Source of the DNA: Phaeovulum sp.
Lineage (GTDB): Bacteria > Pseudomonadota > Alphaproteobacteria > Rhodobacterales > Rhodobacteraceae
Assembly (NCBI RefSeq): GCF_047638075.1
Contig: NZ_JBLJBV010000041.1
Span: forward strand, 4,560 to 68,559
Direction of reading: 5' to 3'
DNA length: 64,000 nt
Below are positions 2,122-43,338 of this stretch, piece by piece. Made by a program: the position numbers and the translations under genes. Below the pieces are notes generated by a model. That model did no database searches. It was not told the DNA's origin and saw nothing but the letters and a program-made list of their open reading frames with translations. Numbering within the stretch: position 1 is the stretch's first letter; the number at the start of each line of letters is the position of its first letter.

Positions 2122-3422
2122 CAGGGCGGCTGGACATCGAAGGTTGGCTTGGTTTTTGCCGCACCCTCATGGTGGGCGCGCTGCTGACGGTTGCCGCGGT
2201 GGGCCACGCCCACGCGCAGGAATTTCGGCTGGCCCCGCTGGATCAGGTCAGCCTGCGGGTGCTTGACTGGAACCCGATCGAGGAAACGGTGCGCGGCTGG
2301 ACCGATATTTCCGGTCAATACCACGTCGATGAGGCCGGGCGGTTGAACATCCCCTTCGTCGGGATGATTGACGCCAACGGCAAGACGCTGGATGAGGTCG
2401 GCAACCAGATTTCGCAGGCGCTGCGCGACCATTTTGCCCTTGCCGAGGCGCCCGATGCAACGCTTGATTTCATTGGCGTGCGCACGGTTGTGGTGGGTGG
2501 ATATGTGCGCAACCCCGGCGCTGTCGAGTTTCGCGCAGGGATGACGGTGCGGCACGCGCTGGCGCTGGCAGGCGGGCTGCAAGAGGTGTTGAACCCGGGC
2601 ACCACCGCCTTTCGCGACTATATCACCAATCAGGGCCAGTTGCGGGTCTTGCTGGACCGCAACCGACGCCAGCATGCCATGCTTGCCCGCCTTGCCGCTG
2701 AACGCGATGAGTCCAAAGACATCACCGTGCCGCCTGATCTTTCAAACCCGGATGGCCTTGCGCTGATTGCGGAACAGACAGAAATCATGCAGCGCCGTCG
2801 CGCGCGCCTTGCCTCGGAACGCGAGGCACTGGGCGAACAGACCGACCTGCTTGAGGCAGAGATTGCCGCGCTTAGCCAAAAGACCGCCGCACTGGAACGG
2901 CAGCGCGTTCTGGCCGAGGAATCGCGCGAAAGCGCCCGCAGCCTTGCCGACCGCGGGCTGATCAACAGTGACCGGTTGTTCAACGCCGAAACCCGGCTCA
3001 TATCGCTTGAAAACCAGCTTTTGGATACCTCGACCGCAATTTTGCGCGCGCGGCAGGGCGTTTCCGCGAACAAGCGCGAACTGGAAGAATTCGTGTCGGG
3101 CCGGATGTCGGACGTGATCGACCAGATCCAGACGGTCACCGCCGAGGCCGCCGAAACCCGCGAACGGATCTCGACGACGCTGCATCTTGTTGATGACGGC
3201 GCCGATCAGTTGGCCCTGCAAGAGGGCGCGCGCCTGACGGATGAACAGATCATTCCAGACCCGGTGGTGACGCTTTACCGCCCCGGGCCGGAGGGTGTTG
3301 AGACGCTTGCCGCCGGTCTTGATGCGGTTGTGCAACCCGGCGATCTGGTCGATGTGCAGATCAGCGACGGACCGCGCCGCGCCCAAGGCCGCGCGCGTGT
3401 GGCACCCAACCCGGCGAACTAG
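2115..3422 (+). CDS. exoF: Periplasmic polysaccharide export protein (Wza/ExoF type, Poly_export + SLBB) with a long coiled-coil
   Basis: Signal peptide MVGALLTVAAVGHAHAQE. Export-domain block GQYHVDEAGRLNIPFVGMIDANGKTLDEV, then GGYVRNPGAVEF, then a heptad-rich Q/E/L/R region. The GTGA overlap with the exoY stop could mark the start; the start could instead be the internal M at 2169. Confidence 0.75.
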   Translation: MVTGRLDIEGWLGFCRTLMVGALLTVAAVGHAHAQEFRLAPLDQVSLRVLDWNPIEETVRGWTDISGQYHVDEAGRLNIPFVGMIDANGKTLDEVGNQISQALRDHFALAEAPDATLDFIGVRTVVVGGYVRNPGAVEFRAGMTVRHALALAGGLQEVLNPGTTAFRDYITNQGQLRVLLDRNRRQHAMLARLAAERDESKDITVPPDLSNPDGLALIAEQTEIMQRRRARLASEREALGEQTDLLEAEIAALSQKTAALERQRVLAEESRESARSLADRGLINSDRLFNAETRLISLENQLLDTSTAILRARQGVSANKRELEEFVSGRMSDVIDQIQTVTAEAAETRERISTTLHLVDDGADQLALQEGARLTDEQIIPDPVVTLYRPGPEGVETLAAGLDAVVQPGDLVDVQISDGPRRAQGRARVAPNPAN

Positions 3423-3424
3423 GT

Positions 3425-4636
3425 TCACCCCTCTTGGCGGCCGCGGCCCTGTGATGCGATGATCACGATCAGCATGGTCACGATCTGAAACTGTTGGAAT
3501 CCGACCACCTCGACCATGCTCATCACGCTTAGAAGCACCATCAGCATTGCCGCAAAAAGCGTGTCGGACCGCGTCACTTTAAGCACGCGCCACAGCGCGG
3601 TGAAAAGCGCCGTCAAAAAGATCACCACCTGCAACGCGACCCCGATAGCCCCGATCTCGACCGCGTTCGACAGCCAGGTGTTGTGAAAATGAAACCCGGT
3701 CTTTGACGCGATCCCGAATTCGCGCCACATGCTTTCAGCGACCGGGTTGCCGACCACCCAGACCGCCTGATACCCCTGCCCACCCAGCGGGTGGCGCGCA
3801 AATTCTGATAGCGCGGTCAGCCACAGATAGGTGCGCCCCGTCAGCGTCACATCCTTGCCGGTCACGTCCAGAACCCAGGCCAAAAGCGCATCCTGGTTCA
3901 GCCAGGCAACCAACAGCGCCGCAACGATCGCCAGCACCAAAAGGCCAAGGGAAAACAGCCGGTACCGCCGATGAAACCGGCGCATCAGGGCAAAGACAAA
4001 CCCCGCAACAACCGCCATCAGCACCGCCAACAGCCAGCCGACCGATTGCGCCCGGGCCAGCAGGATCAGGCCCACCGGCACCGATAGCAGCCCCAAAACC
4101 CGCCAAGGGTTGGTTCCATCACGGCCCAAGCCAAGCGCCAGCCCCGCAATCACGAATAACGCCATCACCTGCGCAAAGGCGTTCTTGCTGCCGTAAATAC
4201 CCAAAAACCCCCCGCCATCCAGCCGCGCCCGCCCAATGGCGACACTGGCCAAGGCCGCCACCGCCAACGCCACAAAGACCGTGCGTAGCAGGGTCTGGGG
4301 CGACAGGCGGTTTGCGATGACAAGCGCAACCGCCACCGTCACGCCAAGCTGAACCCCATAGCGCAGCGTCAGCGCCGGATAGGCAGACCACAGCACCGTC
4401 AGCCCACACCACAGCGGCAACGCCAAAACCCACCCGTCGCGCCATAGCGCCGCCAGATTGGCATTGGGCCGCCGCACGATCAGCGCCCCGCCAACGCCCA
4501 GAAAAAGAAGCGCCCCCACCGCCCCCAGCCGAAACATAAAGAGCACAGACACAAAGCCCAAAAAGGCCAGCACCGTATTGGGGCAGATCGTGATCGTTCT
4601 GATCTGGCGCAGGGGTGCGGCCCGGCCTTGGGTCAT
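3425..4636 (-). CDS. exoQ: O-antigen ligase / Wzy-like polysaccharide polymerase family membrane protein (ExoQ-like)
   Basis: About 10 predicted TM helices with a large loop containing RTYLWLTALSEFARHPLGGQGYQ (Wzy_C-like). The start at 4636 gives an ATGA overlap with the stop of the upstream GH16 gene. Confidence 0.65.
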   Translation of the reverse strand: MTQGRAAPLRQIRTITICPNTVLAFLGFVSVLFMFRLGAVGALLFLGVGGALIVRRPNANLAALWRDGWVLALPLWCGLTVLWSAYPALTLRYGVQLGVTVAVALVIANRLSPQTLLRTVFVALAVAALASVAIGRARLDGGGFLGIYGSKNAFAQVMALFVIAGLALGLGRDGTNPWRVLGLLSVPVGLILLARAQSVGWLLAVLMAVVAGFVFALMRRFHRRYRLFSLGLLVLAIVAALLVAWLNQDALLAWVLDVTGKDVTLTGRTYLWLTALSEFARHPLGGQGYQAVWVVGNPVAESMWREFGIASKTGFHFHNTWLSNAVEIGAIGVALQVVIFLTALFTALWRVLKVTRSDTLFAAMLMVLLSVMSMVEVVGFQQFQIVTMLIVIIASQGRGRQEG

Positions 4637-5409
4637 TTCTTGCCTGCCAGTGCGCATAGGATTGAGCCGTCAAATTGGCACGCATCTTGGGGTGCCGTCC
4701 AGGCGATCCAGTCAATTTCCATCTGCAAGGGGCGCCCCGGGTCTTTGAACGGTCCCATCCAATCGGTCAGGGTGCCGCTGCTCCAATGGCTCAGGTATAG
4801 CTTTTGCGCGTTCTGCGGCAAGACCTTGCCCGTGGTTTCATGCATCAGCGCGCCGTCAATGAACCATCGAATCTGCTCCGGCTCCCAGATCACGGAATAG
4901 GTGTGAAACACCTTGTCGGCGGCGGGGGTGACGGGCACGGTTTGGCCGTTGTGCATCTTGCCGGAAACGAAGGTGTTGAAGCTGACCTTGCCGGGGTCGC
5001 GGGTCAGGATTTCAACGTCAATCTCATCATGCGGCTTTTTGTGAACCTCACCGATGTAGGTGAAAAGTGCCGCGTTGACGCCTGAGGCGCGGTCAGTGCG
5101 AATCCGGGCCTCGAACGTGCCGTATTGGTGGGTTTTCTTCGTCTGCACCTCGCCGCAGATATAGGGGCGATCCTTGTTGCCGGTGGATCGCACCATCAGC
5201 ACCAGCTTGCCCTCGCGTAGCTTGACGGCATCGCGCGACCACCAGCAATTTTGGTGCGCGCCGTTCGTCCACCCGTCTGACACATACCAGCGCGATCCGT
5301 CAAACCGCTCAAATGGGTCAAAAAAACTACCCTCGGCCGCCGCCCCGCTGGCCAAATTCAGCCCGACCAACGCTGCCAGAACGGCCCCCATCATTTTTCG
5401 CAATGCCAA
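4633..5409 (-). CDS. exoK: Secreted glycoside hydrolase family 16 (endo-beta-1,3-1,4-glucanase, ExoK-like)
   Basis: Signal peptide MALRKMMGAVLAALVGLNLASGAAAEG. GH16 catalytic motif HDEIDVEIL, and the C-terminal MEIDWIAW strand. Confidence 0.85.
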   Translation of the reverse strand: MALRKMMGAVLAALVGLNLASGAAAEGSFFDPFERFDGSRWYVSDGWTNGAHQNCWWSRDAVKLREGKLVLMVRSTGNKDRPYICGEVQTKKTHQYGTFEARIRTDRASGVNAALFTYIGEVHKKPHDEIDVEILTRDPGKVSFNTFVSGKMHNGQTVPVTPAADKVFHTYSVIWEPEQIRWFIDGALMHETTGKVLPQNAQKLYLSHWSSGTLTDWMGPFKDPGRPLQMEIDWIAWTAPQDACQFDGSILCALAGKK

Positions 5410-5594
5410 AACATTCCCTTTCGTGCTGCCGCGTGGCCACTGGTCGCATATTGGCCGATGTCGTGTTAGCCTAACAGACGCAAACCCGTTTCATGGGCGA
5501 AACTCGGCCTAAACCCCCGGCGGATTCGGGTTTGGTCAAGACGCGGGGCGTGCAAGGTCTGTATATTGCTAAGACAAAGGGGGCCGCCCGATTC

Positions 5595-6881
5595 ATGACT
5601 GACCACCCCCAGCAAAAGACACCGCCCCCCCTTGTCACGGTGATCATGGCCAATTTCCGCGGCGCGCAGCACATTGAGGCCGCCATGCATGCGGTGCTGC
5701 GCCAGTCGCACGAACAGATTGAGCTGATTGTATCGGATGATGCCTCTGATGATGATAGCTACGCCATCGTCACACACATAGCCGCCACCGATCCGCGTGT
5801 CCGGCTGATCACCGCGCAAACCCGGGGTGGCCCGGCGCGCGCGCGCAATGGCGCGCTTGCGGTGGCGCGGGGCGAATGGATCGCCATCGTTGATGCCGAT
5901 GATCTGGTGCATCCTGAACGCATCATGCGGATGCTGGACGCGGCAGCGGCGCTTGGCGCGGATATGGTGGCCGATGATATGATGCCCTTTGGCAATCTGG
6001 CGGCAACGGCGCAGGGCACCCTTTACGGTGCCACCCTTGCCCAAGGCCCGCGCACCATAACCGCCGCCGATATGATCGCCTCGCCCCCGCTGGGCTATCT
6101 GAAACCGCTGATCCGCCGCACCACCTTGGGCGCGCTGCGCTATGATGAAAGCCTGCACAACGGCGAGGATTTCGACCTTTATCTGCGGCTTTTGCTGAAG
6201 GGCGCGCGTTTGGTCCTGTTGCCGCAGCCGACCTATCTTTACCGTCGCCACGCGTCATCAACCTCGCATCGGCTGTCTGCCGGGGTGCTGCAACCGCTGC
6301 TGGCGGCGCATGATCGGCTGACCCCCACGTCGCCCGAAATTGCCGCCCTTCTGGGAAGGCGGCGCAAGGGGCTGGTCCGGTCGCTGCGCTACGCCCGGCT
6401 TGTCGATGCGGTCAAAGCCCGTAATCGGGTGGGCGCGCTGTGGCTTTTGCTAAAGCACCCGGTTCTTGTGGCGGATCTGGCCGAAAGCCTGCGCGACAGG
6501 CGCCGCCGCCACGCCGCGACCCCTGCTGATACCGCGCCCCCTACCGGCCCGATCGTGCTGGCCGCGCCGGATGATGCGCGCCTTGCCCAAGGGTCATTGG
6601 CAAAGGCCACTTTGATTGCTGTGGGCCGCGCCCCCTCAGATGGCCAATACCCTGATGACACCGCCCTAGCCGCGCAGCTTTGCCGCCTTCATGCCTATGC
6701 CGCCCCGGATGTCACCGCGATTGGCCTGACCGGGCTGCGCGGCCTTGGCTATCTGCCCGGCTGGCACAGTCTTTCGGTTTTGCTGACGCCCGAAGAGGCA
6801 GCGATTGCCGGCGCCCTTTTGCCCAAAGACATAACCCCGGTGATCGCGCCCTATCCCGCCACGTCCAAAAGCAGCCGGTAG
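5595..6881 (+). CDS. Glycosyltransferase family 2 with a ~200-aa C-terminal extension of unknown function
   Basis: VTVIMANFRGAQHIEAAMHAVLRQSHEQIELIVSDDASDDDS and IVDADD (DxD). After about residue 230 I recognise no domain. The start is uncertain: the track ORF begins at 5493, and I used the ATG at 5595 just before the GT2 fold. Confidence 0.75.
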   Translation: MTDHPQQKTPPPLVTVIMANFRGAQHIEAAMHAVLRQSHEQIELIVSDDASDDDSYAIVTHIAATDPRVRLITAQTRGGPARARNGALAVARGEWIAIVDADDLVHPERIMRMLDAAAALGADMVADDMMPFGNLAATAQGTLYGATLAQGPRTITAADMIASPPLGYLKPLIRRTTLGALRYDESLHNGEDFDLYLRLLLKGARLVLLPQPTYLYRRHASSTSHRLSAGVLQPLLAAHDRLTPTSPEIAALLGRRRKGLVRSLRYARLVDAVKARNRVGALWLLLKHPVLVADLAESLRDRRRRHAATPADTAPPTGPIVLAAPDDARLAQGSLAKATLIAVGRAPSDGQYPDDTALAAQLCRLHAYAAPDVTAIGLTGLRGLGYLPGWHSLSVLLTPEEAAIAGALLPKDITPVIAPYPATSKSSR

Positions 6882-7837
6882 CCGTCATCGCGCAGCCCGT
6901 CGCGGTCACGCCGCAACGGTTGCAGCTTATCGCGCGCGACCCCCCGCACGATGGCGGCCAGACGCCCGCCCCCGCCCATGGCATATTTCATCGCGGCGGC
7001 CAGACCCTCCTGCGCCTTGCGGTCCAGAAACACCCGGTGATCCAGCTTGGCGCGCACCTCGGCCCGGTAGGCGCGCATCGCGGCCTTTGTCACCGCATCC
7101 GCCTTCGCCTCATGGCGCGCGATGGCGGTATCAAGCGCGCCCAGATCAACGGTAGAGTGGCGCGCGCTTAACGAATTGCTACGCACGATCGCACCGTACC
7201 CAGCCTGCCGCGTGATCCGAAACCGCGCACCCGCCAGCAGCATGCGCACATAGAAATCATAATCCTCGCCCAACCGAAGCGTCCCGTCATAGCCAAGGCC
7301 GTGCCGCAAAAGAAATGCCCGCGACAAAAGCGGTTTCAAAAACCCCATTTCACCGCGTGTATGATGGGCCGAGGCCAGATTGCCCCGAATGAAGCTGGCC
7401 GCATCAATCGCCTCAAACCCGCGCCCTACCCCCGGAAGCGACGCAAAATCAAGCGTCTCTGCCCCCCTTTCGGTGACAAAGGCGACATTGTCCGCGATCA
7501 TGTCCCACCCCGGTTCAGCCAACAGCCGCGCCAGACGGCCGGGCGCAAAGAAATCGTCAGAATCCAGAAGGGCCAACACCTCGCCCGTCGCAACCTTTAG
7601 CGCGCGATTGCGCGCCCCGGCCGGCCCCACGTTCGTCTCAAGTGCGACCAGCCGCACCCGGTCATCGCGCGCCGCCCAGCCCGCGACACAGGCCCGGGTA
7701 TCGTCGCCCGAGGCATCGTCAACCACAACTATTTCGGATGTTTCAGGTTGCGCCAGCGCCGAGGCGATCGCCCGCCCTATTGTCGGCGCGCAATCATGCG
7801 CGGCAATAAGAACACTGACCGTGGGCCTGCGCATCAT
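6851..7837 (-). CDS. Glycosyltransferase family 2 (ExoO/ExoU-like)
   Basis: VSVLIAAHDCAPTIGRAIASALAQPETSEIVVVDDASGDDT, LLDSDD and the GEDYDFYVRML motif. Its 3' end converges on and overlaps the previous GT2 by 31 nt. Confidence 0.8.
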   Translation of the reverse strand: MMRRPTVSVLIAAHDCAPTIGRAIASALAQPETSEIVVVDDASGDDTRACVAGWAARDDRVRLVALETNVGPAGARNRALKVATGEVLALLDSDDFFAPGRLARLLAEPGWDMIADNVAFVTERGAETLDFASLPGVGRGFEAIDAASFIRGNLASAHHTRGEMGFLKPLLSRAFLLRHGLGYDGTLRLGEDYDFYVRMLLAGARFRITRQAGYGAIVRSNSLSARHSTVDLGALDTAIARHEAKADAVTKAAMRAYRAEVRAKLDHRVFLDRKAQEGLAAAMKYAMGGGGRLAAIVRGVARDKLQPLRRDRDGLRDDGYRLLLDVAG

Positions 7838-7853
7838 CCTGCCCCGCCTTGAA

Positions 7854-8153
7854 TTATTTGGGCGCCACATTGTTGCCGTTCAGGGCGTTGGCGCCCCCGT
7901 GCCCGTGATCCGTTTTTGTGCGGTTACGGCGCAGTTTTCTGGCGCGCGCCGCGCTGACAACCATCAACACACCCACATAAAGCAGTTGCGACACGATCAT
8001 GACACTAACGGCAAGACCGACACAGGACCAAAAGCCAAGACCAGCCACAGCGCCGACAATACCCGCCGTGAACGACGCGATGAACATGCCAATCGCAAAA
8101 GCGCCTATACCCACAGTTCCGGTACTTTCCCCGCTAAAATCATCATCTTCCAT
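7854..8153 (-). CDS. Small (99 aa) two-TM membrane protein, possibly an ExoX/SyrA-type exopolysaccharide production repressor
   Basis: Acidic N-terminus, two hydrophobic helices (IGAFAIGMFIASFTAGIVGAVAGLGFW and LAVSVMIVSQLLYVGVLMVVSA), then a basic stretch ARARKLRRNRTK. The size, topology and position inside an exo cluster recall ExoX (about 98 aa). The family assignment is from memory and unverified. Confidence 0.45.
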   Translation of the reverse strand: MEDDDFSGESTGTVGIGAFAIGMFIASFTAGIVGAVAGLGFWSCVGLAVSVMIVSQLLYVGVLMVVSAARARKLRRNRTKTDHGHGGANALNGNNVAPK

Positions 8154-8371
8154 GGTAGTGCGTCAAGAACGGCTGTCAATCACGCAAAACGCCCTATCCA
8201 ATTGTTTTCGTGCGCAATTTAACGAATACCTGCGCACAGTCAAGCGCGCGTGCCCCCTGTTGCAACTGCTGTCATGATCACATCCGAATGAGGCATTGCC
8301 GAGGCGATTGCGAAAATTTCTGCCATTGTGACAAATTTCCGCCTTTGCCACGGTCACCCCCCACGGGCGCA

Positions 8372-10702
8372 TCACTCAAAATACGGGGCCAATTCCTCGT
8401 CAAAGGATTCGACCTGCGCGGGGCCGACATAATTTTTCAGCTCTCGCATATCGACATCGCCCAACACCATGCCCAACACCCGCGATGACAGTTCCGGCTC
8501 TTGCTCCAGGGTTTCGCTGATCAGGCCATAGGGGGTCTTGCCCCATAGCGCCAACAAGACGACCTGATCAACCAGCGCAATCAGCTCTCTTGCGTCCACC
8601 ACCGGGCCCAGCGGGCCAAGATCCACGACCACATGACTATATTCGCGCGCCGCGGCGATCAGGAATTCGCGCATCATACGCGATGACAGCACATCGGCAG
8701 GGTGCGATAGGGTCGCTTTTCCCGACCAGCCGATTGCCTCGACATTCGTCCCCGCAATGCTGACGCGGCAATCGCGCCAATCGGCACTGCCCTCGATGAC
8801 TTCCGCAAGATCACCTTTGGCACCCAGCCCCAGCAGACGGCTTAGCTGCTGGCTACGGGGGTCGCCATCAATCAACAGCACATTATGCGACGAAACCGAC
8901 AGTATCCCGGCCAGATCAGCCGCCAGCGCCGTCTTGCCCACGCCCGGCAAAATGGAGGTGACGCCAATCACCGTTCCACCCTGCCCGGGCAATACGGTCG
9001 ACGAAATATGGCGAATGGTGCGCAGGGTTTCGCTGTAACGGGTTCGGGGCGCGGTGATATGCGCCAGCGGATACTGAATCAGTTGCGCCCCCATAGCCGC
9101 CGTGTCCTTTGCAGACTCGGGTGCCGCCTCATAGTTGCGTCCGGCAACGGGCAAAGGCGGCAGATACCCCAGAAACCTGAGCTTCAGGCCATCGGTCACA
9201 TCTGCGGCGGTGCGCACATACCTTTCGCGCCATTCGCGCAATCCGGCATGCGCCAGCCCGGCCATCAGGCCCAGCACGATCATCAGCGCCAGCACCCTTT
9301 TGGCCGAGGGCGACGCCGCCCCGCGCGGAATTTCCGCAGGGGTCAGCACCCGGATCTGACTGCCCGAATAAAGGCGTAGCTGCTCGGCCCCCTGAAACTG
9401 GCTCAGGAACGTCTCATATAGCCGCATCAGCGTGTCTGTTCGCTGCTTCAACAGGCGATATTCAATCTGTGCGCGCAACGCCTCTGAGTTTTCCTCGTTC
9501 AGCGGCACGATCGCGTCGCGCAAGGATGCCACGCGGGCCTCGGCCACCGCCAGCTCGCCTCGGGCGACCTCGGCCTGGCGTTCCATCTCGGCGTAAAGGC
9601 GTTGCGCGGATTGTTCGATCTGTGCATCCAGAACCGCTATCTGCGGATGGTCCGCACCAAAGTTGCGCATGACGCCATCCCGGCGTTGGGTCAGGGTCGA
9701 CAGGGCCTGCCCCATCTCGGTCAGACGGGTATCGCCGGGTAGGCTTAGCCGGCCCCCCGCGCCACCCGTTAGGGCCGCCACCCCGCGCGCCAGGGCCCCG
9801 TCATAGCTGGCCACCAGGGCGCGGCTGCGGGCAGCCTCGGCCCGCGCCATCGAAAGTTCGGCGTTCAGGCGGTTCAGGTTTTCTTCGGTGATCAGCCGGT
9901 CGCCGGTGGCGACAAGACCGGCCTTGGCGCGGAAGGTCTCGGCATCCATCGCGGCCTTTCGGGCGTCGGTTTCAAGATCGGCCAGCCGGGTTTGCAAAAA
10001 CTTCGTCGTGCGTGTCGTCGCCTCGAACGTCGTGCTTAGCTGATCCGAGGTATAGGCTTCGGTATAGGCGTTGACAATCTGCGCTGCCAACGCGGGGTCA
10101 TGCGACTCGAACTCGATCTGCAGGGCGGTGCTGCGGCCGATCCGCTCGATGATCAGGTCACCTTGCAGGCTGCGCGCCGCCTTATCCCGTAGCGCCTGAT
10201 CGGCGGCATCCGCTGACCCGCCAGTGCCGGGGCCAAAATCGGGCTTTGGCGACAACATATCCAGCGCGGCCCGAACCGTCCCGGTCAGCGTATGCAAGGT
10301 GCGCGATGCCAGCGACGCAGGCGGCGTCATGAACGCCGCTTTTTCGCGCAGCGCAAGGATATCATCAACCCGCAACGCCAGATCGCGTGACCGGAAAACC
10401 TGCTGGGCCGTTTCCACCGACGCATCCGAGACGGTTTCCGTCACCGCCACGTTATCAACCTGTCCCGTGGACTGCCCCGCCAGAAGAACCGTCGCGGCCG
10501 CACGATAGCTGGGCGGGGTCGTTGCCAGATAGACCAGGCCCAGCACACAGAACCCGGCGATCCACAATAGCAAGACCCGCCGCTGACGGCGCGCCGCCTG
10601 CGCAAGTTTGCCAAAGTCAATCAAGACATCACCGCCGCCGGGCTGCGGGTTGGCGGTATTTCTTGTGTCGCTATCCGACATTCTGAATCGAAAATCACTC
10701 AT
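8372..10702 (-). CDS. exoP: Polysaccharide co-polymerase / chain-length determinant with a C-terminal BY-kinase-like P-loop ATPase (ExoP/GumC type)
   Basis: Wzz-like N-terminus with a TM helix (RRVLLLWIAGFCVLGLVYLATTPPSY), a long coiled-coil periplasmic region, a second TM helix, then Walker A GVTSILPGVGKTALAADLAG and LLIDGDPR. The start is moved to MSDFRF (cat at 10700-10702), giving an ATGAGTGA overlap with the exoM stop. The track's 937-aa version adds an Arg-rich extension that overlaps exoM. Confidence 0.85.
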   Translation of the reverse strand: MSDFRFRMSDSDTRNTANPQPGGGDVLIDFGKLAQAARRQRRVLLLWIAGFCVLGLVYLATTPPSYRAAATVLLAGQSTGQVDNVAVTETVSDASVETAQQVFRSRDLALRVDDILALREKAAFMTPPASLASRTLHTLTGTVRAALDMLSPKPDFGPGTGGSADAADQALRDKAARSLQGDLIIERIGRSTALQIEFESHDPALAAQIVNAYTEAYTSDQLSTTFEATTRTTKFLQTRLADLETDARKAAMDAETFRAKAGLVATGDRLITEENLNRLNAELSMARAEAARSRALVASYDGALARGVAALTGGAGGRLSLPGDTRLTEMGQALSTLTQRRDGVMRNFGADHPQIAVLDAQIEQSAQRLYAEMERQAEVARGELAVAEARVASLRDAIVPLNEENSEALRAQIEYRLLKQRTDTLMRLYETFLSQFQGAEQLRLYSGSQIRVLTPAEIPRGAASPSAKRVLALMIVLGLMAGLAHAGLREWRERYVRTAADVTDGLKLRFLGYLPPLPVAGRNYEAAPESAKDTAAMGAQLIQYPLAHITAPRTRYSETLRTIRHISSTVLPGQGGTVIGVTSILPGVGKTALAADLAGILSVSSHNVLLIDGDPRSQQLSRLLGLGAKGDLAEVIEGSADWRDCRVSIAGTNVEAIGWSGKATLSHPADVLSSRMMREFLIAAAREYSHVVVDLGPLGPVVDARELIALVDQVVLLALWGKTPYGLISETLEQEPELSSRVLGMVLGDVDMRELKNYVGPAQVESFDEELAPYFE

Positions 10703-11681
10703 ACCTATCGGAACCTTTGGGCGTGTTTGGGGCCATTGGCGGGCGGTCAGTCTGACCTGTATCCGGCGCACCGTAAATGCTTGGCTGCGCCAACCCCACC
10801 AAATTCGCCATGACACCAACGTGAAGTGCTGCGCGCACGATATTGCCGTTTCTGGCCTTTGCTGACGGGAATTGCACCGTAGCGGCCGCCATGCACCATG
10901 CGGCCTTGGCCAGCGCCACGGCAAACCGCGCCGCCTTGGCGGTTGGCGTAGCGTCCGCATAGTGCAGGCTGGCATAGGTCTGGCCCATGCGGTAGCGACG
11001 GCGCAGCAGCCAGCCCAGACGCGCGCGGGCGTCGGGCACCTCTTCGCTAACCAGCGCGTCCCTGGCGAAAGACAGCCGGGCGCCTCGGCTGCGGGCCGCC
11101 TCAAACCAGGCGCTGTCTTCGCCGCCCGACCGCCCGCGCGCCGGATCAAAGCGCAGGCCCGCAAACGCAGGCGCCGCGCAATCAATCATCGCATTGCAGC
11201 TATGGCCCGCAATGGGGCGCCCATCAGGCCCGGTTTCGGGCCAGGTATCATGCGCCCGCGCCGCCTGCATCCATTCTGGCGCGCCGGGGCGATAGGTTGC
11301 CCGCACCGGCCCCATCACCGCATCGGCCCGGTCTTCGGTCATCCGCGCATCCAGCCGCGCAAGCCAGTCCGGCGCTGCAATCTCATCATCATCAATAAAC
11401 GCAAGCCGCGCCGCGCCGGCCCGCTCAGCGGCCTCCAGAATGGCGTTGCGCGCAACCGCGATATTGCGCGCCGGGGCATGCAGATATTCCACCCCGTGGG
11501 CCGTGCGGGCGGCGAATTTCGCCACCAACCCCGCCGCAGTCGGGCTGTCGTCATTATCGGCCACAATGATCCGCAGCGCCGCACCCTTTGGCACATGCTG
11601 CCGGGCGAGGCTGCCGAGCGTATCAGCCAGCGTTTCGCGCCGAAAGGTGCAGACCCCGATGGCGATCAAACGGGCGCTCAT
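10695..11681 (-). CDS. exoM: Glycosyltransferase family 2 (ExoM-like beta-1,4-glucosyltransferase)
   Basis: MSARLIAIGVCTFRRETLADTLGSLARQHVPKGAALRIIVADNDDSPTA, FIDDDE and SGGEDS. The C-terminal FPSAKARNGNIVRAALHVGVMANLVGL matches my memory of S. meliloti ExoM. ATGA overlap with the exoA stop at 11678-11681. Confidence 0.8.
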   Translation of the reverse strand: MSARLIAIGVCTFRRETLADTLGSLARQHVPKGAALRIIVADNDDSPTAAGLVAKFAARTAHGVEYLHAPARNIAVARNAILEAAERAGAARLAFIDDDEIAAPDWLARLDARMTEDRADAVMGPVRATYRPGAPEWMQAARAHDTWPETGPDGRPIAGHSCNAMIDCAAPAFAGLRFDPARGRSGGEDSAWFEAARSRGARLSFARDALVSEEVPDARARLGWLLRRRYRMGQTYASLHYADATPTAKAARFAVALAKAAWCMAAATVQFPSAKARNGNIVRAALHVGVMANLVGLAQPSIYGAPDTGQTDRPPMAPNTPKGSDRYE

Positions 11682-35224: not shown

Positions 35225-35953
35225 TTATGCCGCTGAAGTTGTCTGACACCTTGTCGCGCAAGGTTTTCTAATCGCGCGGGATGGTTTCACGCATGAACGC
35301 AAGAATAGCGTCGGCAAACGGTTTTCGACTTGGGTTGAGGCGCCCCCCATTCCTTGGACAGGATCTGGGGTTTTCCAAGCTCTGATCTGCTCTTGCTGAT
35401 CGGGGTGCGTTGCTTCGACTTTCAGCGAGTAGACCATCGCCGGTGGTTGCCCGCCAGAGGCTTTGTGCGGGCGGCGGTGATTGTAGAACTCCATCCGTTT
35501 CCGGACACCCGCGCGGGCCAGAGACCCGGTCTCCCAGAAACCCACGGCGCATCCATTGCCCGGCAGGCGATTTGGCAGGGCCAAATCTGCCGAGTGGGGG
35601 CAGATAGGTGATGTCCACGCACCAGACCTGGTTTGGCCGTTCCACCTGCAGCCCATGCAGGAGGTAAGGGCAGGCCTTGTGTCTCTTTGCGGGCTTACTG
35701 GTGTTACTTCCGATCCCAAGGCTTGAGTTCTTTCCAAAAAAGAGTTGACCACCGTCAGCTCCCCAATCTTGGCATGCAGATCCCTGACCTGGTCTTCATC
35801 GATGACCGGTGCCTTGCGGCGGCTGCGTTCAAACACACCGGACGCGCCACCACGCAGCGCGCGTTTCCATTGGTTGATCATCGTCGGATGCACGCAGAAC
35901 CGGCTCGCCAGTTCCGACACGGTCGCCTCCCCTTTCAACGCTCCCAGCGCCAC
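35225..35953 (-). pseudogene. Decayed IS3-family element: orfA helix region plus scattered orfB pieces with internal deletions
   Basis: VSELASRFCVHPTMINQWKRALRGGASGVFERSRRKAPVIDEDQVRDLHAKIGELTVVNSFLE is IS3 orfA. ERPNQVWCVDITYLP (alternate frame, about 35600-35645) and EFYNHRRPHKASGGQPPAMVY are rve-domain pieces. The DDE core is missing. Confidence 0.75.
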
Positions 35954-36034
35954 CTTCGCCTTGAACTCAGGGGCGAGCTGCTACCGCCTCGGAAGTTCTG
36001 GTCGCGGCCAATCATTGAAATGTATGCGGCCGGG

Positions 36035-36223
36035 ATGTTGGTTGTGGAAACGATTGCCAAGATCGGGCGAGCGTATTTCATCCAAGGTAAGCCGATCAAG
36101 CAGATCTGCCGTGAGTTGCGGGTGTCGCGGAACGCGGTGCGCAAGGTGGTGCGGTCGGAAGCAACGGAGTTCAGCTATGACCGCTCGACGCAGCCCCGTC
36201 CGAAGATTGATCCCTGGCGCGAT
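36035..36223 (+). pseudogene. IS21-family istA N-terminal fragment
   Basis: [63 protein letters not shown] matches the HTH N-terminus of IS21-family transposases. It breaks off after about 63 aa. Confidence 0.7.
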
Positions 36224-36261
36224 CATCGACTGCCAAAGCGTCAAAAGCGCAGAAAAAGGGG

Positions 36262-36522
36262 GGTCTGGCACAAACCCAACTGCAACAGCTCAAGCTCGCC
36301 AAAATGCTGACAGAAATCAGCCTTGGCGTGCAGGCAAGCCTGCGCGTTGGTCGCCTGATGGAGGATGCCCAGGCTGCGCCTGAAATGATTTCAGTCATCA
36401 AGCGCAACAACTGCGGCAAGGCACTGGCGCGGACATCGCGTGACATGCACGGCGGCAACGGGATCTCGGAGGAATTCCAGATCATGCGCCACATGGTGAA
36501 CCTTGAAACAGTCAACACGAAT
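36262..36522 (+). pseudogene. C-terminal fragment of a glutaryl-CoA dehydrogenase-type acyl-CoA dehydrogenase
   Basis: [86 protein letters not shown] is the Acyl-CoA_dh_1 tail. No N-terminal or middle domain is present, and homology ends at VNT. Confidence 0.7.
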
Positions 36523-36653
36523 GCTGATCAGAAATCAGCGATACCCCAGTTGGCCGCAGCCTTGTCGAGCGACACCACGCACCATCCGAACAAACTCCGG
36601 TGGGCTGATTGTGATCGATCGGCCGGGGCCCGGTGCCGAGCCCCGGCTGAGCC

Positions 36654-36854
36654 TCAGACGGGCATGTTGTCCCAAAGGCTCTCGGCATCGCCGCACACGG
36701 TGATGAGATGCCGCCGCGCGCGCCGCTGGGCCGGTGCCTCGGGGTCCCCGAGGCTGTAGCGCAGCTTGCTCTTCAATTCTTCCGCGCGGGCGGGGTTTGC
36801 CAGGAGATCGTCCACGAACAGGTCAATCTCGTCGCGACGGTTCGTTTGGCTCAT
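36654..36854 (-). CDS. Hypothetical small protein (66 aa)
   Basis: [66 protein letters not shown]. Coding-like, with no family recognised. A 7-bp GC hairpin (ccggggc/gccccgg, about 36623-36646) lies downstream. Confidence 0.35.
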
Positions 36855-36995
36855 GCCATCCTCCCGAGTGAAATGTCGCGCCAGTGCGGGCGCGACTGTT
36901 GCCGTAAGACCACGCAAATACGACCAAAGCGATTCTTGTCTCGCCTTTGTGCTGGGCATCTTTTCGCAAGTCCGACTCATAGGCTGCAAACTGCC

Positions 36996-37160
36996 CTAAC
37001 GTAAACCTGCATCGCGCAATGCTTGCCGCTCCATTCCGGCGAGCCGCGCCGCCTCCGCCCGGCTCGCTCCCTCGGGCGCGGTGGCGATCACATATATCCG
37101 CGCCGTAGTCCGCCCGTCGTGCTCTCGGCGTGCGGTCCGGCGCAACCCTGCTGCCGTCCG
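36996..37160 (-). pseudogene. IS630-family transposase N-terminal (HTH) fragment
   Basis: My reverse translation reads AAGLRRTARREHDGRTTARIYVIATAPEGASRAEAARLAGMERQALRDAGLR*. It parallels the ...RRLAR.EKDGR..RR.LAIA..LEG.SR.EAAR..GMDRQTLRDW... block of IS630-type transposases and stops prematurely. Confidence 0.6.
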
Positions 37161-37261
37161 ATCCTCCCCGATCTTGAGTGCTGCACCATCACATCCTCCA
37201 TATCTGGTAGATGAAAGGGAATCACATTGCGTAGCCTCAATAAAGAGCCTTCCGAGTCAGA

Positions 37262-39294: not shown

Positions 39295-39657
39295 CTTGCG
39301 TGCCTCGCTGGATGTGGTGCTACCCAAATTCCGCTGAACCGTCACAAGAGCCGAAGCCCGGTTCCACTCCGAAACAAGAGCTACAGGAGGTGCGGGCGGT
39401 AAATGTCGCACGGGAAGTCGACCCGAACGCGCCGAAGTCGTCGAATAACATATCGAAGACTGACCCTGGCACTTCAGCGAAGGCACGCAGCCGCGCGGCT
39501 CGCGCCGCTGCGGGTGGCGGTGGCCAGGGTCAACTATTGCTCGATATCGAGGGATTGAGGATCACGAGCGCAGACCGGACGGCGCCGGCTTCGGCATTTC
39601 CGATGGGCTAACTGGCCCGATGTTGCATATGCGGGCGTTTAGGGGAACAAAGAGAGA

Positions 39658-40020
39658 TCATTCCGTTCCATCCATCGCCTTGAGGCACATGACGACGTTT
39701 TCGGCTGTGAACTTGAACCCTTGCCTGTCTGGCTGACGCTCGACGTTGATCGGGTATTTTGGCCGGCGGGTTTCGATGCCGACCATACGGAACGTTTCCC
39801 GCCCGGTTGAGAACTCGCGGCCAAAGTCGTCCGGGCTGAGACCATAGTTGTTTGCGAGCAGTTCGAACTTGGCCTTTTCGGGGTCGAAGACGGTCCCGTC
39901 CGCCAAGGGGATACCCACCTTGACGCCGACATTCGAACCAGAAACCCCGCTGATCATGGTGTCAAAGCCGCGCCGGGGACCCCAAAAACCGTCTTCGATG
40001 AATAAGCCGGGCTTAAACAA
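39658..40020 (-). CDS. Hypothetical protein (120 aa; TTG start, possibly 5'-truncated)
   Basis: FKPGLFIEDGFWGPRRGFDTMISGVSGSNVGVKVGIPLADGTVFDPEKAKFELLANNYGLSPDDFGREF has protein-like composition. The only upstream in-frame starts are TTG at 40020 or ATG at 39957. No family recognised. Confidence 0.4.
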   Translation of the reverse strand: MFKPGLFIEDGFWGPRRGFDTMISGVSGSNVGVKVGIPLADGTVFDPEKAKFELLANNYGLSPDDFGREFSTGRETFRMVGIETRRPKYPINVERQPDRQGFKFTAENVVMCLKAMDGTE

Positions 40021-40179
40021 CTCTGGCAGACAGGCTCAGCCCGCTGCCTCAGCGTGACAAAGCCGTAAAATGCGGCACAGCGATCTCAACCTTCAACAGA
40101 GCCGCTCGGTTGTGATTTTGGTGAGTGCTGTTAAGTGTCGTTGGTCTCCCGAAAAGAATTGTCAGCCTTAACTTTCACG

Positions 40180-40244
40180 CATGTCATGTGCGAGATAGTT
40201 TGGGTCTCTTGACACATGTCATGGGGCAGTCTAACTATCTCGCA
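40180..40244. promoter_or_regulatory. Repeat-structured putative operator spanning the HipA-family gene start
   Basis: Perfect 12-bp inverted repeat TGCGAGATAGTT (40189-40200) / AACTATCTCGCA (40233-40244). A 9-bp direct repeat CATGTCATG occurs at 40180-40188 and 40215-40223. The annotated ATG (40216) lies inside the second direct repeat. Confidence 0.55.
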
Positions 40245-42105
40245 TCTCAAGTGCGTGAAGGTTGTAATTTTGCTTTATCTCATCGGTGAAAATCTCGACA
40301 AGACCCGCGCTCACTACCGAGCTGAGACTGGGAAACTTATTCAGCTTATGCGCGGCATTTATGTCGACACTGACGCCGATATCGATGCAATTGTTCTGCG
40401 CAGTGCAGTGCGGATTGCACATTACCTCTATCCAAAGGCGTATCTTTCGGCAGCCAGCGCCAATTTGCTGGCACCCACGCGAGATGGCCGCTTGTTCATC
40501 AGCGGGAAACGCAATCAGCGTACTAGGATCAGGTCTCTGGAGATCATCCAGAACGTAGCGCCAGATCAGCCTGCGGTCGCGACAGCCATTGTCGATGACG
40601 GAGCAGGGGAATTCCAGATCGCCGTCTCGTCGATGCGGCAGCGATTTCTTGAAGCTTTTCGGCAGCGTAGTGAGCACGCCAGTGCGATCGATGAAGGGAT
40701 GCGCACCGAGATCGCCGCGCGTCTTATCGAAGAATATGGCAGCCCATCTGCCGCCGCAGATGCGGTTTGGGCGCTTGCGCGCGCAAACAAATGGTACCGC
40801 GAGGGGGAGCAGACAGAGCGGTATTTGTTACGTTCTGCTGTTGCGGTGGATGTTCGCAACGAAGCAGCACTTTCGTTCTTGGTTGCTTGGCATGGTCAAA
40901 TTGTCGGTCAACTTAGTCATGATGGTTTTGAATGGCGATGGCAGCCACAAGACAAATTCAATTTGCCGCTCGTGCAGCAGCGGGTTCCGGGCCAGCTACC
41001 CCCCTTCATACTGTCACTGTTGCCTGAGGGTTGGCTAGAGAAGGTTCTCAAAGACAACGACGAGCGGGCAATGCTGCGCTCGGGCAAACGATATATGTCC
41101 AACATTACGATCAGCGAAGACGCAGCCGAGCTCGCATCGCTCCCCGCAGACACGCTGGCCGTGTCGTTATCCCGATATACCCACAACGGTGTGTTTGCCG
41201 GAAGCTATGCAGGCCCGGGGCGCGGCAAGCTTGAAGCAGATTTCGAGGCGGGGCTGGCCCGACTTTATGAGCGGGCGGACACACCGCGCCTGTCTGGCGT
41301 CCAGATCAAGGCGCCGATGTATTTGGCGCAGGGTGGCCAATTGTCGCCGAGCACGGGCTTGCCGTTCACTCACATTTTGAAGCCGGCGGGAACCAGCGGA
41401 TTTCAGGCGCTTCCCGTGATCGAATATCTTGCCATGTCTCTTGGCCGTGCGTCAGGGTTGGAGACACCTGACATCGCTTTGGTCGCAATGCCGGATGACA
41501 TGCCCCCGGCCTTGCTGGTCGAGCGATTCGATATTCGCACATCGTCCGAGGATGAACGCCGCTTTGCTTTGGAGGATCTTTGTTCGGTTCTCGATCTGCC
41601 CCCAGATGCGAAGTATGATGGAACTATCGAGAGGATAACTCGTGCTGTTCGGCCGCTGTCGACATCTGCCGGGGCAGATCTGCTGTTAGTCATCAAGCGC
41701 GCACTATTCGCTTGGTTGATCGGCGACGGCGATATGCACCTGAAGAATTTGGCACTCCTAAAGATTGCCGGTCCTGCTGCGGATCGCTTCAGCACAATCC
41801 GGCTCGCGCCGCTCTATGATGCGGTCACGACGAGGGTCTTCCCGAGTCTTGAACAAGATCGCATGGCCCTGAAACTGAACGGCAAAGACGATCGCTTGCG
41901 ACGTCGTGATTTCATGCAGGTGGCGGCGATCGCCGGCTTGGCTACAACCGGTGTGGGCGAAGAGATCGACTATTTCTTGCAGCGCTTCTCCGAAGCCATA
42001 GACGGGGTTTCTGTGCCTGATCTTCCCGGCACGGACCGTGATATCCAGGAGCGAGCAGAGGCGATGGTTGCCATTTGCAGGGAGCGGGTTGCGGCATTCA
42101 CCTAA
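40216..42105 (+). CDS. HipA-family Ser/Thr kinase toxin homologue with a ~215-aa N-terminal extension (possibly AbiEi-like)
   Basis: HipA core: PRLSGVQIKAPM (41290-41310 encodes LSGVQIK), FALEDLCSVL, and LIGDGDMHLKNLALL (GDGDMHLKN at 41722-41748). Also APLYDAVTT and LKLNGKDDRL, with a HipA N-domain-like LVAWHGQIVGQLSHDGFEWRWQ. Residues 1-215 precede this. TGKLIQLMRGIYVDTD...YPKAYLSAASANLLA resembles the G.L.rl.RGvY...aviS..SAl pattern of AbiEi-type antitoxins. The start codon is uncertain. Confidence 0.75.
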   Translation: MSWGSLTISHLKCVKVVILLYLIGENLDKTRAHYRAETGKLIQLMRGIYVDTDADIDAIVLRSAVRIAHYLYPKAYLSAASANLLAPTRDGRLFISGKRNQRTRIRSLEIIQNVAPDQPAVATAIVDDGAGEFQIAVSSMRQRFLEAFRQRSEHASAIDEGMRTEIAARLIEEYGSPSAAADAVWALARANKWYREGEQTERYLLRSAVAVDVRNEAALSFLVAWHGQIVGQLSHDGFEWRWQPQDKFNLPLVQQRVPGQLPPFILSLLPEGWLEKVLKDNDERAMLRSGKRYMSNITISEDAAELASLPADTLAVSLSRYTHNGVFAGSYAGPGRGKLEADFEAGLARLYERADTPRLSGVQIKAPMYLAQGGQLSPSTGLPFTHILKPAGTSGFQALPVIEYLAMSLGRASGLETPDIALVAMPDDMPPALLVERFDIRTSSEDERRFALEDLCSVLDLPPDAKYDGTIERITRAVRPLSTSAGADLLLVIKRALFAWLIGDGDMHLKNLALLKIAGPAADRFSTIRLAPLYDAVTTRVFPSLEQDRMALKLNGKDDRLRRRDFMQVAAIAGLATTGVGEEIDYFLQRFSEAIDGVSVPDLPGTDRDIQERAEAMVAICRERVAAFT

Positions 42106-42193
42106 ATATAGCGACTTTGTATTAGGGGCTGTTGACGTTCATCTTGACGCAATCAAAGCAGCGGCCAGGTTCCAACTGGCTGTGTAGCTGCAA

Positions 42194-42637
42194 TCAGTTT
42201 GGCGCAATTCTACATTCAGCGAGTATCAGTTCATTTGTGCCCACCTTTCCCATGGCCCATGCCTTTTGCATGGCCTCGCGGTATTCCCAAAGCGACACCT
42301 GCGAGATTTCCAGATTGCGATACCGCGCCTCAACGCAGCGACCGCCGTCCAGTTCAACCCAAATCACTGAAAGGTCGCCGGGATCGTAGCGGACGACCCC
42401 CCTTCGGTCTTTGCGGGCAACGTACCCTGCAAGCGCATCAGACCAATATCGGCGGTCGAACAGATGGATGCCATCGCGCCGAACCTGCCGCTGCTCACTC
42501 GGCAAAAAACTCACCCGAAACGCCTCCAAGTCGAAGGGGATGTCGCCCACTATTCCATCGGCGAGCGCTTCCCACTTGGCGACAGGTGTGCAGCCCAGGC
42601 TCGAATGAATGCTGTTGTTGTAGCGGCAAATCTCTAA
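42194..42637 (-). pseudogene. 5'-truncated Mu/TnsB/TniA-type transposase remnant (end of the rve core plus the Mu-transposase C-terminal domain)
   Basis: Reverse translation from 42637 reads LEICRYNNSIHSSLGCTPVAKWEALADGIVGDIPFDLEAFRVSFLPSEQRQVRRDGIHLFDRRYWSDAL...VVRYDPGDLSVIWVEL. YN...HS.LG.TP..W and GI.f....Y plus vrYDP.DlS.i.V are hallmarks. It is cut off by the IS5-family left end at 42638. Confidence 0.65.
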
Positions 42638-43338
42638 GAGGCTGATCGGAAATGAGTTGAGTGAATTCAGAAGGTTGTGATTCTGTTCGGTTGCAAAGCT
42701 AAACGGAGATCGCGATGGCCTGGACTGAACTCACCCGCGCGCAACATAAGCGTAAGACCAAGCGCTATCCAAGCGATTTGACGCCGGAGGAATGGGCAGT
42801 TGTTCGCCCGCAGCTACCCTGTCACAATCGCCGTGGGCGTCCGCGACAGGTGGGGTTGCGCCGGGTCTGGGATGCGATCCAGTATATCGCGGTGGCGGGA
42901 TGCGCGTGGTCCCTCTTGCCCAAGGATTTCCCGCCGGTCTCGACCCTACGCTATTATTTCTATCGGTGGCGCGCCAATGGCCTCCTTGCCGAGATCAATC
43001 GGGCGCTGGTCGCGGCAGCGCGCCTCGCGGCAGGACGGGATATTCAACCGAGCGGTGGCGTGATTGACAGCCAAAGCGTAAAAACCTTTGAAAACACGTC
43101 ACTTTCCGGGTTCGACGCAGGCAAGTGGATCAAGGGTCGAAAGCGCCACATCATCACCGATACCTGCGGCAACCTGATCGCGTGCGAAGTCCACACAGCC
43201 AACATTCAGGATCGGGATGGCGCGCCCGGAGTCTTTGCCAAGCTCCGCCGTGAGGCCCCGAGATTACGTCACATATTTGCGGATGGCGGCTATGCTGGAC
43301 CGAAGCTGCGCGGTGTTGAAGCTCTGTTGATGGCATAG
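42638..43338 (+). mobile_element. IS5-family (IS1031/IS427-like) element, copy 1, 3'-truncated
   Basis: The left end GAGGCTGATCGGAAATGAG is preceded by TAA (a TNA-type target). The transposase ORF 42715-43338 reads MAWTELTRAQHKRKTKRYPSDLTPEEWAVVRPQLP...VIDSQSVKT...IFADGGYAGPKLRG. It then diverges and stops about 70 aa short of the family's C-terminus (the missing part is visible in copy 2). No right end is present. Confidence 0.75.

Follow-up and report, generated by a model that had tools for sequence, protein, structure and literature searches.

Here we describe a single gene and its control region in a 64,000-nucleotide (nt) stretch of Phaeovulum sp. DNA (the whole stretch that was analysed, called the window below, in which all positions are counted). 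The gene encodes a kinase of the HipA type, and the interval 40170-42105, which comprises the gene and its control region, is probably a self-contained, monocistronic and autoregulated HipA-type toxin or defence cassette. Profile searches and structural models show one polypeptide, in which a module of the predicted AbiEi fold (residues 1-190) is followed by a flexible linker and by a HipA kinase that is catalytically intact by sequence. The gene is a real and intact member of a sizeable, undescribed family, and represents a Hip kinase organisation that is new in carrying a fused AbiEi-type regulator together with an operator pair of its own. The AbiEi-HipA fusion is a widespread family and not a one-off case.

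An open reading frame (ORF) runs without interruption from 40216 to 42105 on the plus strand and gives 629 amino acids (aa) when read from the first ATG. The biological start is most likely the TTG at 40270, giving 611 aa, because more than 100 homologue clusters begin there; in the first homologue search these clusters had 610-612 aa and the N-terminus MLYL(I/V)GEN, and the TTG start is also used in five related loci. The ATG at 40216 sits inside the promoter, between the two operators O1 and O2 described below, and was dropped as start in view of this position and of the homologue N-termini. The GTG at 40255, which gives the 616-aa forms of some gene callers, was rejected as well, being within a conserved arm of O2 and missing from most loci. 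An earlier note on this DNA had placed the gene start at 40020, a position which is the end of the divergent upstream ORF and not the start of the kinase gene; all the motifs quoted in it were found where it had located them (Table 1).

The only Pfam domain of the window protein is HipA_C (PF07804), at residues 359-590 of the 629-aa ORF, with 129.9 bits against a cut-off of 30.5, and because this sole domain starts at residue 359 the N-terminal extension of about 200 residues is real. The HipA core behind such an extension, as it had been described earlier, stands, and the HipA part begins at about residue 199 in the 611-aa numbering. By alignment and by model, residues ~199-611 are a complete HipA, made of N-subdomain 1 and the core. 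Searched with phmmer against PDB sequences, the protein matched HipT of Legionella (1.3e-17) and HipA of E. coli (1e-10), and residues 205-260 separately matched HipS (the Couple_hipA domain; chains 7ab4_B and 7ab3_B) with E of ~2e-4 to 3.6e-4; the Pfam Couple_hipA profile was not reported for the window protein at E <= 1. The full-length AlphaFold (AF2) model, with a predicted local distance difference test score (pLDDT) of 87.6 and a predicted template modelling score (pTM) of 0.69, superposes over ~450 columns on the whole HipA of E. coli and of Shewanella (TMt 0.70-0.73), and also on HipT (TMt ~0.8). The structure matches of this model came in the order E. coli/Shewanella HipA, then HipT, AbiEi and HipS, the last through chains 7ab3_E/B in Foldseek.

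When aligned pairwise with E. coli HipA (71 bits), the protein has K371, D488 and D517 (611-aa numbering) opposite K181, D309 and D332, and a family alignment of 14 diverse members with identity down to 29% keeps S342, G343, Q345, K347, K371, D488, H490, K492, N493 and D517 without exception. The ATP-binding lysine, the catalytic aspartate and the Mg-binding aspartate are thus conserved, as the claim of an intact kinase had implied; degeneracy is ruled out by the alignment, and the kinase part is, at the level of its sequence, without any trace of decay. The loop serine directly precedes the glycine (LSGVQ), which is the position of HipT S59 and not of HipA S150.

The N-terminal module is built of a strand (residues 2-5), a helix (11-19) and a beta-hairpin (23-33) with an invariant RG(I/V)Y, followed by an alpha/beta part like AbiEi's C-terminal domain. 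The model of residues 1-202 (pLDDT 91.9, pTM 0.84) was compared with the PDB by Foldseek, and the only significant matches were the two chains of 6Y8Q, the AbiEi antitoxin of S. agalactiae (E 3.8e-6 and 1.7e-4, probability 1.0, TM 0.49/0.50). This alignment has 198 columns for a target of 195 residues, so that both AbiEi domains are covered, and 6Y8Q was recovered again with the full-length model (E 4.4e-5). Among the profile hidden Markov models (HMMs), those of PADLOC for AbiEi gave E 1.8e-3 on the isolated N-domain of the window protein; of 13 diverse family members, 10 were matched by these models (best 1.1e-6) and five by Pfam AbiEi_4 (best 5.8e-4); the aligned stretch in some members goes from profile position ~28 to ~180 of ~200. 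The module also has the AbiEi-type signature G.L..(I/L).RG(I/V)Y ... SA..L. The profile scores indicate homology, not in-threshold family membership. A sequence-profile search of the N-domain against the PDB found no relevant match (best E 0.13, to an unrelated protein), so in the PDB the kinship with AbiEi is visible by fold comparison only.

This kinship is accordingly supported by two independent lines, profile HMMs and structure, and the resemblance to AbiEi that the earlier note had seen by eye is borne out, with a winged helix shorter than that of AbiEi. The paired palindromes in the promoter of the gene, described below, agree with it as a third test. All AbiEi HMM alignments begin at about profile position 25-30, so that about the first 25 AbiEi residues, which make up helices 1-2 of the winged helix, have no counterpart. 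The AbiEi winged helix has three helices and three strands (PMC7319586); in the model of the window protein its reduced form looks like a recognition helix plus wing. The module presumably has the role of an antitoxin.

Residues 1-200 were also searched against 1.84 billion representative proteins, and 222 proteins were found. All the complete proteins among them are HipA fusions of 600-684 aa, and the remainder are fragments or garbled metagenomic calls; no complete stand-alone N-module protein of ~200 aa was among the matches, and the four of odd length that were inspected were fragmentary or garbled gene calls. Because every complete match is a HipA fusion, the AbiEi-like module is confined to this kinase family. 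Three metagenomic proteins (P0123, P0127 and P0142) have the module behind an unrelated leader of 125-200 aa, or have low-complexity Arg/Ser-rich tails, and these look like frameshifted or mis-started gene calls and not like new architectures. With the distant member P0211 as query, a homologue search returned two proteins only and gave nothing new.

Two imperfect palindromes of 31 base pairs (bp), the predicted operators O1 and O2, precede the coding sequence with a centre-to-centre distance of 63 bp, and O2 overlaps the presumed -10 element, the transcription start and the GAAGG element. A degenerate operator pattern matched only O1 and O2 in the 64-kb window, and 100 shuffles gave zero matches. 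For the comparison of this layout, 80 loci from species genomes and seven from other searches were collected (87 in all), of which 50 have a full-length homologue. The layout was defined as a pair of 31-mers at a spacing of 50-70 bp, in each of which 10 or more of the 15 pairs are complementary and the second of which ends at most 20 nt from the start codon. Of the 50 loci, which belong to several phyla, 43 have this layout; among 10,000 shuffled upstream regions it arose 3 times, and at 1,851 positions picked at random from these loci also 3 times. When nine upstream regions were aligned, O1, the TTGAC box and O2 were conserved, and the spacer and the DNA 5' of O1 were not. The TTGACA box presumably marks the promoter, which a consensus sigma-70 scan left uncalled owing to the weak -10.

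The sequence class of the operators and their spacing co-vary with helix 11-22 and with the hairpin, each of which exists in two versions. Class A has the arms AACTTTC...GAAAGTT, a spacing of 62-67 bp, and proteins with DK(T/A)R(A/S)HY(Q/L)AETGK at residues 10-22 (the helix 11-22 being DKTRAHYQAETGK) followed by the hairpin LMRG; class B has the arms AATTATC...GATAATT, a spacing of 54-57 bp, and proteins with DAKRAHQRAQAGE at residues 10-22 and the hairpin LVRG. Within one locus O1, O2 and the half-sites share the same inner variant, which is CGCAT..ATGCG, CGTAC..GTACG or CGTAG..ATACG. Two distant loci (L064 and L066, 28-31% identity) have different long palindrome pairs: in L064 a palindrome of ~50 bp, TGTCTAAAAAATCGGTCTTATAAT/ATTATAGGATCGAAGTTTTAGACA, with a third related arm lies 5' of the gene at 5787-5912, and in L066 two palindromic units of ~55 nt, 81 bp apart, lie 5' of the gene at 5856-5992. 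Because the kinase is the sole gene which always accompanies both sites, its N-module is the obvious candidate for the protein that binds O1 and O2, and we infer that it does so. AbiEi represses its own operon through inverted repeats in the promoter, for which the full-length protein is required (PMC7319586).

DNA homology to the closest relatives spans 40167-40170 to 42103-42121, with unrelated flanks; these relatives are the loci L028, L007 and L006 (~90% identity) and L001-L003 (77%). Because the block of homology ends there, the cassette is taken to open with the first base of O1 and to close shortly beyond the stop codon, and it seems that the toxin moves together with its regulator and control region as a single unit of ~1.95 kb. 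The called genes which flank the homologues differ between loci, and an all-against-all comparison of the ORFs within 3.5 kb of the 50 loci found no conserved partner gene; the largest groups of neighbours were prfC downstream (six Burkholderiales) and a tyrosine integrase just upstream of the kinase gene (five loci). The absence of a HipB/Xre partner, another observation of the earlier note, extends beyond the window: no ORF for a helix-turn-helix (HTH) antitoxin (hipB) adjoins the kinase in the window or in L001 and L004-L007, and none is conserved across the 50 loci. A DUF1814/AbiEii gene is likewise absent from the Pfam-annotated neighbours in L001-L006, and no neighbour is conserved across the family.

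Full-length copies occur in ~47 species genomes, and those at 57-69% identity are in Alpha-, Beta- and Gammaproteobacteria and in Acidobacteriota, Gemmatimonadota, Chloroflexota and Desulfobacterales metagenome-assembled genomes (MAGs). To judge by the sequences compared, the family is spread by horizontal transfer. A full-length copy is carried by 70 PLSDB plasmids (Pseudosulfitobacter, Rhizobium, Mesorhizobium, Agrobacterium, Acidiphilium, Acidovorax and others), and one copy adjoins parA/parB-repB; no full-length homologue was found in phage genomes. The copy on plasmid pSMR1-4 (L007, NZ_CP022419.1; a 92%-identical homologue) adjoins a TerB-N / ATPase / DEAD-helicase / DUF4297 cluster. Directly downstream of that kinase, at 2419-11536 of the record, a run of genes encodes a TerB N-terminal domain protein, a first ATP-binding protein, a DEAD/DEAH helicase, an anti-phage-associated protein of the DUF4297 family and a second ATP-binding protein; with this run the plasmid record apparently opens on a defence island. 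In the databases the family is named only as 'HipA domain-containing protein' or 'type II toxin-antitoxin system HipA family toxin'.

In the six betaproteobacterial loci with prfC (within L018-L030, Burkholderiales MAGs) this gene, which encodes RF3 (GTP_EFTU and RF3_C, E 1e-40 to 1e-54), lies ~100-165 nt downstream of the kinase on the same strand. The adjacency may be simple synteny or may hint at a link with translation termination. E. coli hipH lies some ten genes from prfC, which is probably a coincidence.

The mechanism that we propose begins at the promoter. The AbiEi-like module would bind both palindromes, probably as one dimer on each; the two sites, with six helical turns between them, span the -35 flank (O1) and the region from the -10 over the transcription start to the ribosome-binding site (O2). 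This binding would repress transcription of the module's own gene, as AbiEi and HipB do for their operons, and the module, or its assembly on DNA, would hold the attached kinase quiet. The restraint would be lifted by phage infection, by loss of the plasmid or island, or by proteolysis of the N-module or the linker. The released kinase would then phosphorylate a translation factor, likely an aminoacyl-tRNA synthetase as with HipA and HipT, and growth would stop; this arrest would help to retain the plasmid or island or act as abortive infection. HipA phosphorylates GltX and HipT phosphorylates TrpS (PMC8262856). The invariant S342 of the Gly-rich loop is a candidate site for inactivating autophosphorylation.

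Several observations weigh against an autoregulated toxin or defence cassette of this kind. The restraint of the kinase by the N-module is the weakest step of the mechanism, because the full-length model, with its modest pTM and a disordered linker at 191-198, supports no fixed inhibitory docking of the N-module. The part which would read DNA is a cut-down winged helix of one helix and a hairpin, from which binding to a 31-bp palindrome is not self-evident. The window protein taken alone has no Pfam AbiEi match at E <= 1 and is below threshold for every AbiEi profile, the matches across the family notwithstanding. The co-variation of helix and operator is essentially that of two clades and is hence confounded with phylogeny. 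Finally, the six Burkholderiales copies keep a stable chromosomal position upstream of prfC, which would fit a housekeeping regulator equally.

HipA kinases are switched off by autophosphorylation. In a more specific form of the mechanism, which we put forward tentatively and as rather unlikely, the AbiEi-like module would be a cis-acting antitoxin that induces the attached HipA to phosphorylate itself at S342 and that tethers the protein to both operators, and phage infection or loss of the element would fire the kinase. The AbiEi and MenA antitoxins are reported to neutralise their toxins by inducing toxin autophosphorylation, and the loop D85/E86/I87 of AbiEi is needed for this activity (bioRxiv 10.64898/2026.01.19.700257; PMC11375011). 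AbiEi-induced autophosphorylation of a toxin parallels the off-switch of HipA, and if the proposal is true, the gene would be a one-gene abortive-infection or addiction system which unites the mechanisms of AbiE (type IV/VII) and HipBA (type II).

Another explanation takes the protein not as a toxin but as a one-component regulator or signalling kinase, that is, a DNA-binding transcription factor in which the HipA-like domain serves to sense a signal or to modify either a specific target or the protein itself, with a physiological role and no growth arrest. It gains from the lack of an antitoxin gene and of any conserved partner, and from the fixed chromosomal site upstream of prfC already mentioned; E. 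coli HipH, which is also monocistronic with a DNA-binding domain, is reported to act pleiotropically and in a non-classical way, on cell division, carbon metabolism and ribosome assembly (PMC9948734). However, operator-like sites are present only in the gene's own promoter (the two matches in 64 kb), and the cassette crosses phyla at 57-69% identity, with copies carried by plasmids, adjoining integrases or lying within a defence cluster. Moreover, all the experimentally analysed HipA/HipT kinases in Table 1 of PMC8262856 belong to toxin-antitoxin modules. We consider such a regulator unlikely.

It is more doubtful still, and in our view quite improbable, that the N-module regulates the kinase only and does not bind DNA, with the palindromes bound by a host factor or with the transcribed O2 acting as an RNA hairpin which controls translation. 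Such a division of roles would agree with a winged helix that is without the first two AbiEi helices, with the place of O2 in the presumed 5' leader, where it overlaps the ribosome-binding site, and with M. tuberculosis Rv1044, an AbiEi homologue which reportedly fails to recognise its cognate promoter (PMC7319586). An RNA role, however, leaves O1 unexplained, which has the same sequence as O2. Because O1 precedes the -35 box and the palindrome arms are kept in sequence and not merely in pairing, a protein-binding role at the DNA level is much more likely than an RNA hairpin, and an Rfam scan of 39600-42700 gave no match. A host factor, for its part, would not follow the cassette, whereas operator class and spacing shift with the N-terminal helix and hairpin across unrelated hosts.

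An artefactual fusion, in which an AbiEi-like antitoxin and hipA were merged by a frameshift (a true start far downstream, with a separate, frameshifted upstream gene, had been named earlier as what would overturn the fusion), or a decayed pseudogene in a region rich in insertion sequences (IS), is refuted in spite of the truncated transposase genes (42194-42550, 42715-43338) and other gene fragments around: the single continuous ORF is kept family-wide in more than 100 clusters of 610-620 aa and at full length in the ~47 species genomes, the window protein shares 93% identity with P0001, with 97% of the 629-aa query aligned and no frameshift, the catalytic residues are all intact, and no complete stand-alone N-module of ~200 aa was found among the N-domain matches.

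Among known systems the closest functional analogue, by analogy of organisation, would be HipH (YjjJ) of E. coli K-12, a monocistronic HipA relative whose N-terminal HTH has been proposed as a cis-acting antitoxin (Gerdes et al. 2021, PMC8262856). Both are single genes without HipB, in which an N-terminal domain of DNA-binding type is fused to a Hip kinase and for which a role as cis antitoxin or autoregulator is proposed. They differ in that the extension of HipH has ~100 aa and a classical HTH, whereas that of the window protein has ~190 aa and a predicted two-domain AbiEi fold, and in that the window protein retains a HipS-like N-subdomain 1 after the extension. The two kinases are related only distantly, and membership in YjjJ/HipH itself was rejected: NF007297 gave 13.3 bits against a cut-off of 401, and BLASTP to E. 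coli HipH gave 23.9 bits, over the catalytic motif. HipL (Gerdes 2021, PMC8262856) does not apply either, as the order in the window protein is AbiEi-like, HipS-like and kinase core, with no C-terminal extension and no HIRAN match. The kinase is nearer to HipA and HipT than to HipH.

With hipBA of E. coli K-12 and Shewanella oneidensis the gene shares a complete HipA, with the TMt, the bit score and the three retained catalytic residues given above. The hipBA promoter carries multiple palindromic operators, and so does the promoter in the window. In contrast to hipBA, the window kinase is without a separate HipB gene, DNA binding being presumably provided in cis from an unrelated fold, and its loop serine is at the HipT position. 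CapRel-type proteins are fused single-chain defence proteins. EzeT of E. coli is a single-polypeptide toxin-antitoxin with a cis-acting antitoxin domain (cited in PMC8262856). The window protein resembles EzeT and CapRel in having the toxin and the presumed neutralising domain in one chain and in being a stand-alone gene on mobile DNA, but both its toxin fold and its regulatory fold are other ones, and its regulatory domain is likely also a transcriptional autoregulator.

The likeness to AbiEi (COG5340; PDB 6Y8Q, 1ZEL) lies in a fold match over the full AbiEi length, in the HMM-matched signature and in the paired inverted repeats of its own promoter, as in AbiEi autoregulation (PMC7319586). 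Unlike AbiEi, the window module is not free-standing and is shortened at its N-terminus, its partner toxin is the covalently attached kinase, and no DUF1814/AbiEii nucleotidyltransferase is nearby.

The published Hip classification (Table S2B of PMC8262856) has eleven organisations, namely hipBA, hipAB, hipEB, hipBST, hipH, hipL, hipQF, hipQG, hipIN, hipJS and hipMP; none of them has an AbiEi-type module, and AbiE and winged-helix domains are unmentioned in the text of that paper. In the hipBA rows of its Table S1 there are no kinases of 610-616 aa and no MLYL(I/V)GEN start, which weighs little as it concerns these rows only. No description of an AbiEi-HipA fusion was found in the literature searched, of which the coverage is incomplete, so an earlier notice elsewhere is possible.

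HipA kinases are the founding persistence toxins, and in this family, which occurs in marine and soil Proteobacteria on plasmids and islands, and also in other phyla, the regulator fold of another toxin-antitoxin class is joined to such a toxin. The control DNA moves together with the gene, and the operators are defined to the base. The natural variants of operator and helix predict specificity swaps, and the flexible linker marks a point at which the protein may be split. The family also bears on the question of how single-gene toxin-antitoxin proteins stay harmless.

Table 1. Features of the cassette in the window, with the basis of each assignment.
Feature	Position	Strand	Basis or remark
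Operator O1 (predicted), 31-bp imperfect palindrome AACTTTCACGCATGTCATGTGCGAGATAGTT	40170-40200	.	Just 5' of the -35-like box
-35-like box TTGACA	40209-40214	+	Between O1 and O2; TTGAC kept in the upstream-region alignment
Presumed -10 TAACTA, weak match	40232-40237	+	In the left arm of O2
Operator O2 (predicted), 31-bp imperfect palindrome AACTATCTCGCATCTCAAGTGCGTGAAGGTT	40233-40263	.	Ends 6 nt ahead of TTG 40270
GAAGG Shine-Dalgarno-like element	40257-40261	+	Overlapped by O2
AbiEi-HipA fusion kinase, coding sequence (611 aa)	40270-42105, stop codon included	+	ORF call; homologue lengths
AbiEi-like module, residues 1-190	40270-40839	+	AF2 model, Foldseek 6Y8Q, AbiEi HMMs
Motif TGKLIQLMRGIYV	40327-40365	+	Coordinate check
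Motif YLSAASANLLA	40441-40473	+	Coordinate check
Flexible linker, residues 191-198	40840-40863	+	pLDDT <50 in the full-length model; sequence and length vary across the family alignment
HipA N-subdomain 1 (HipS / Couple_hipA-like) and connecting region, residues ~199-334	40864-41271	+	phmmer, Foldseek
Motif LSFLVAWHG	40870-40896	+	Coordinate check
HipA_C kinase core	41290-41985	+	Pfam PF07804; alignment to E. coli HipA
Gly-rich loop LSGVQIK	41290-41310	+	Coordinate check; aligns with HipA VAGAQEK
ATP-binding Lys in FTHILKP	41365-41385	+	Alignment to E. coli HipA
Catalytic motif GDGDMHLKN	41722-41748	+	Coordinate check; alignment to E. coli HipA
Mg-binding motif APLYDAVTT (PLYD)	41806-41832	+	Coordinate check; alignment to E. 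coli HipA

Of the neighbours in the window, the divergent ORF of 120 aa (39658-40020, minus strand) had been described as of no known family and indeed has no match in Pfam, NCBIfam or PADLOC. It was considered as a partner and rejected, being without a family match, missing from all 87 related loci and outside the conserved cassette. The lower content of guanine plus cytosine that had been remarked around the gene holds against the DNA at 37-40 kb (0.535-0.578 here, 0.62-0.67 there), but such values are usual at 43-54 kb (0.53-0.59).

The truncated Mu-type transposase reported beside the gene is a 118-aa C-terminal fragment of a Mu transposase (42194-42550, minus strand; E 1.2e-15), with ~83% DNA identity to 'Mu transposase C-terminal domain' genes carried by plasmids of Actibacterium and Gemmobacter. 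It is followed at 42715-43338 on the plus strand by a truncated IS4/IS5-type transposase of 207 aa with DUF4096 and the first half of DDE_Tnp_1. On the other side, a stretch of gene fragments and other short ORFs was seen by eye at 35633-37240. In it the ORF 35633-36310 has an HTH-bearing N-terminus, resembles an IS21-type transposase and contains IAKIGRAYFIQGKPIKQICRELRVSRNAVRKVV, and the ORF 36304-36759 has a piece that resembles the C-terminus of an acyl-CoA dehydrogenase, both likewise by eye. Given these fragments and the transposase remnants at 42194-43338, the kinase cassette lies, as judged by eye, in a mosaic of IS debris.

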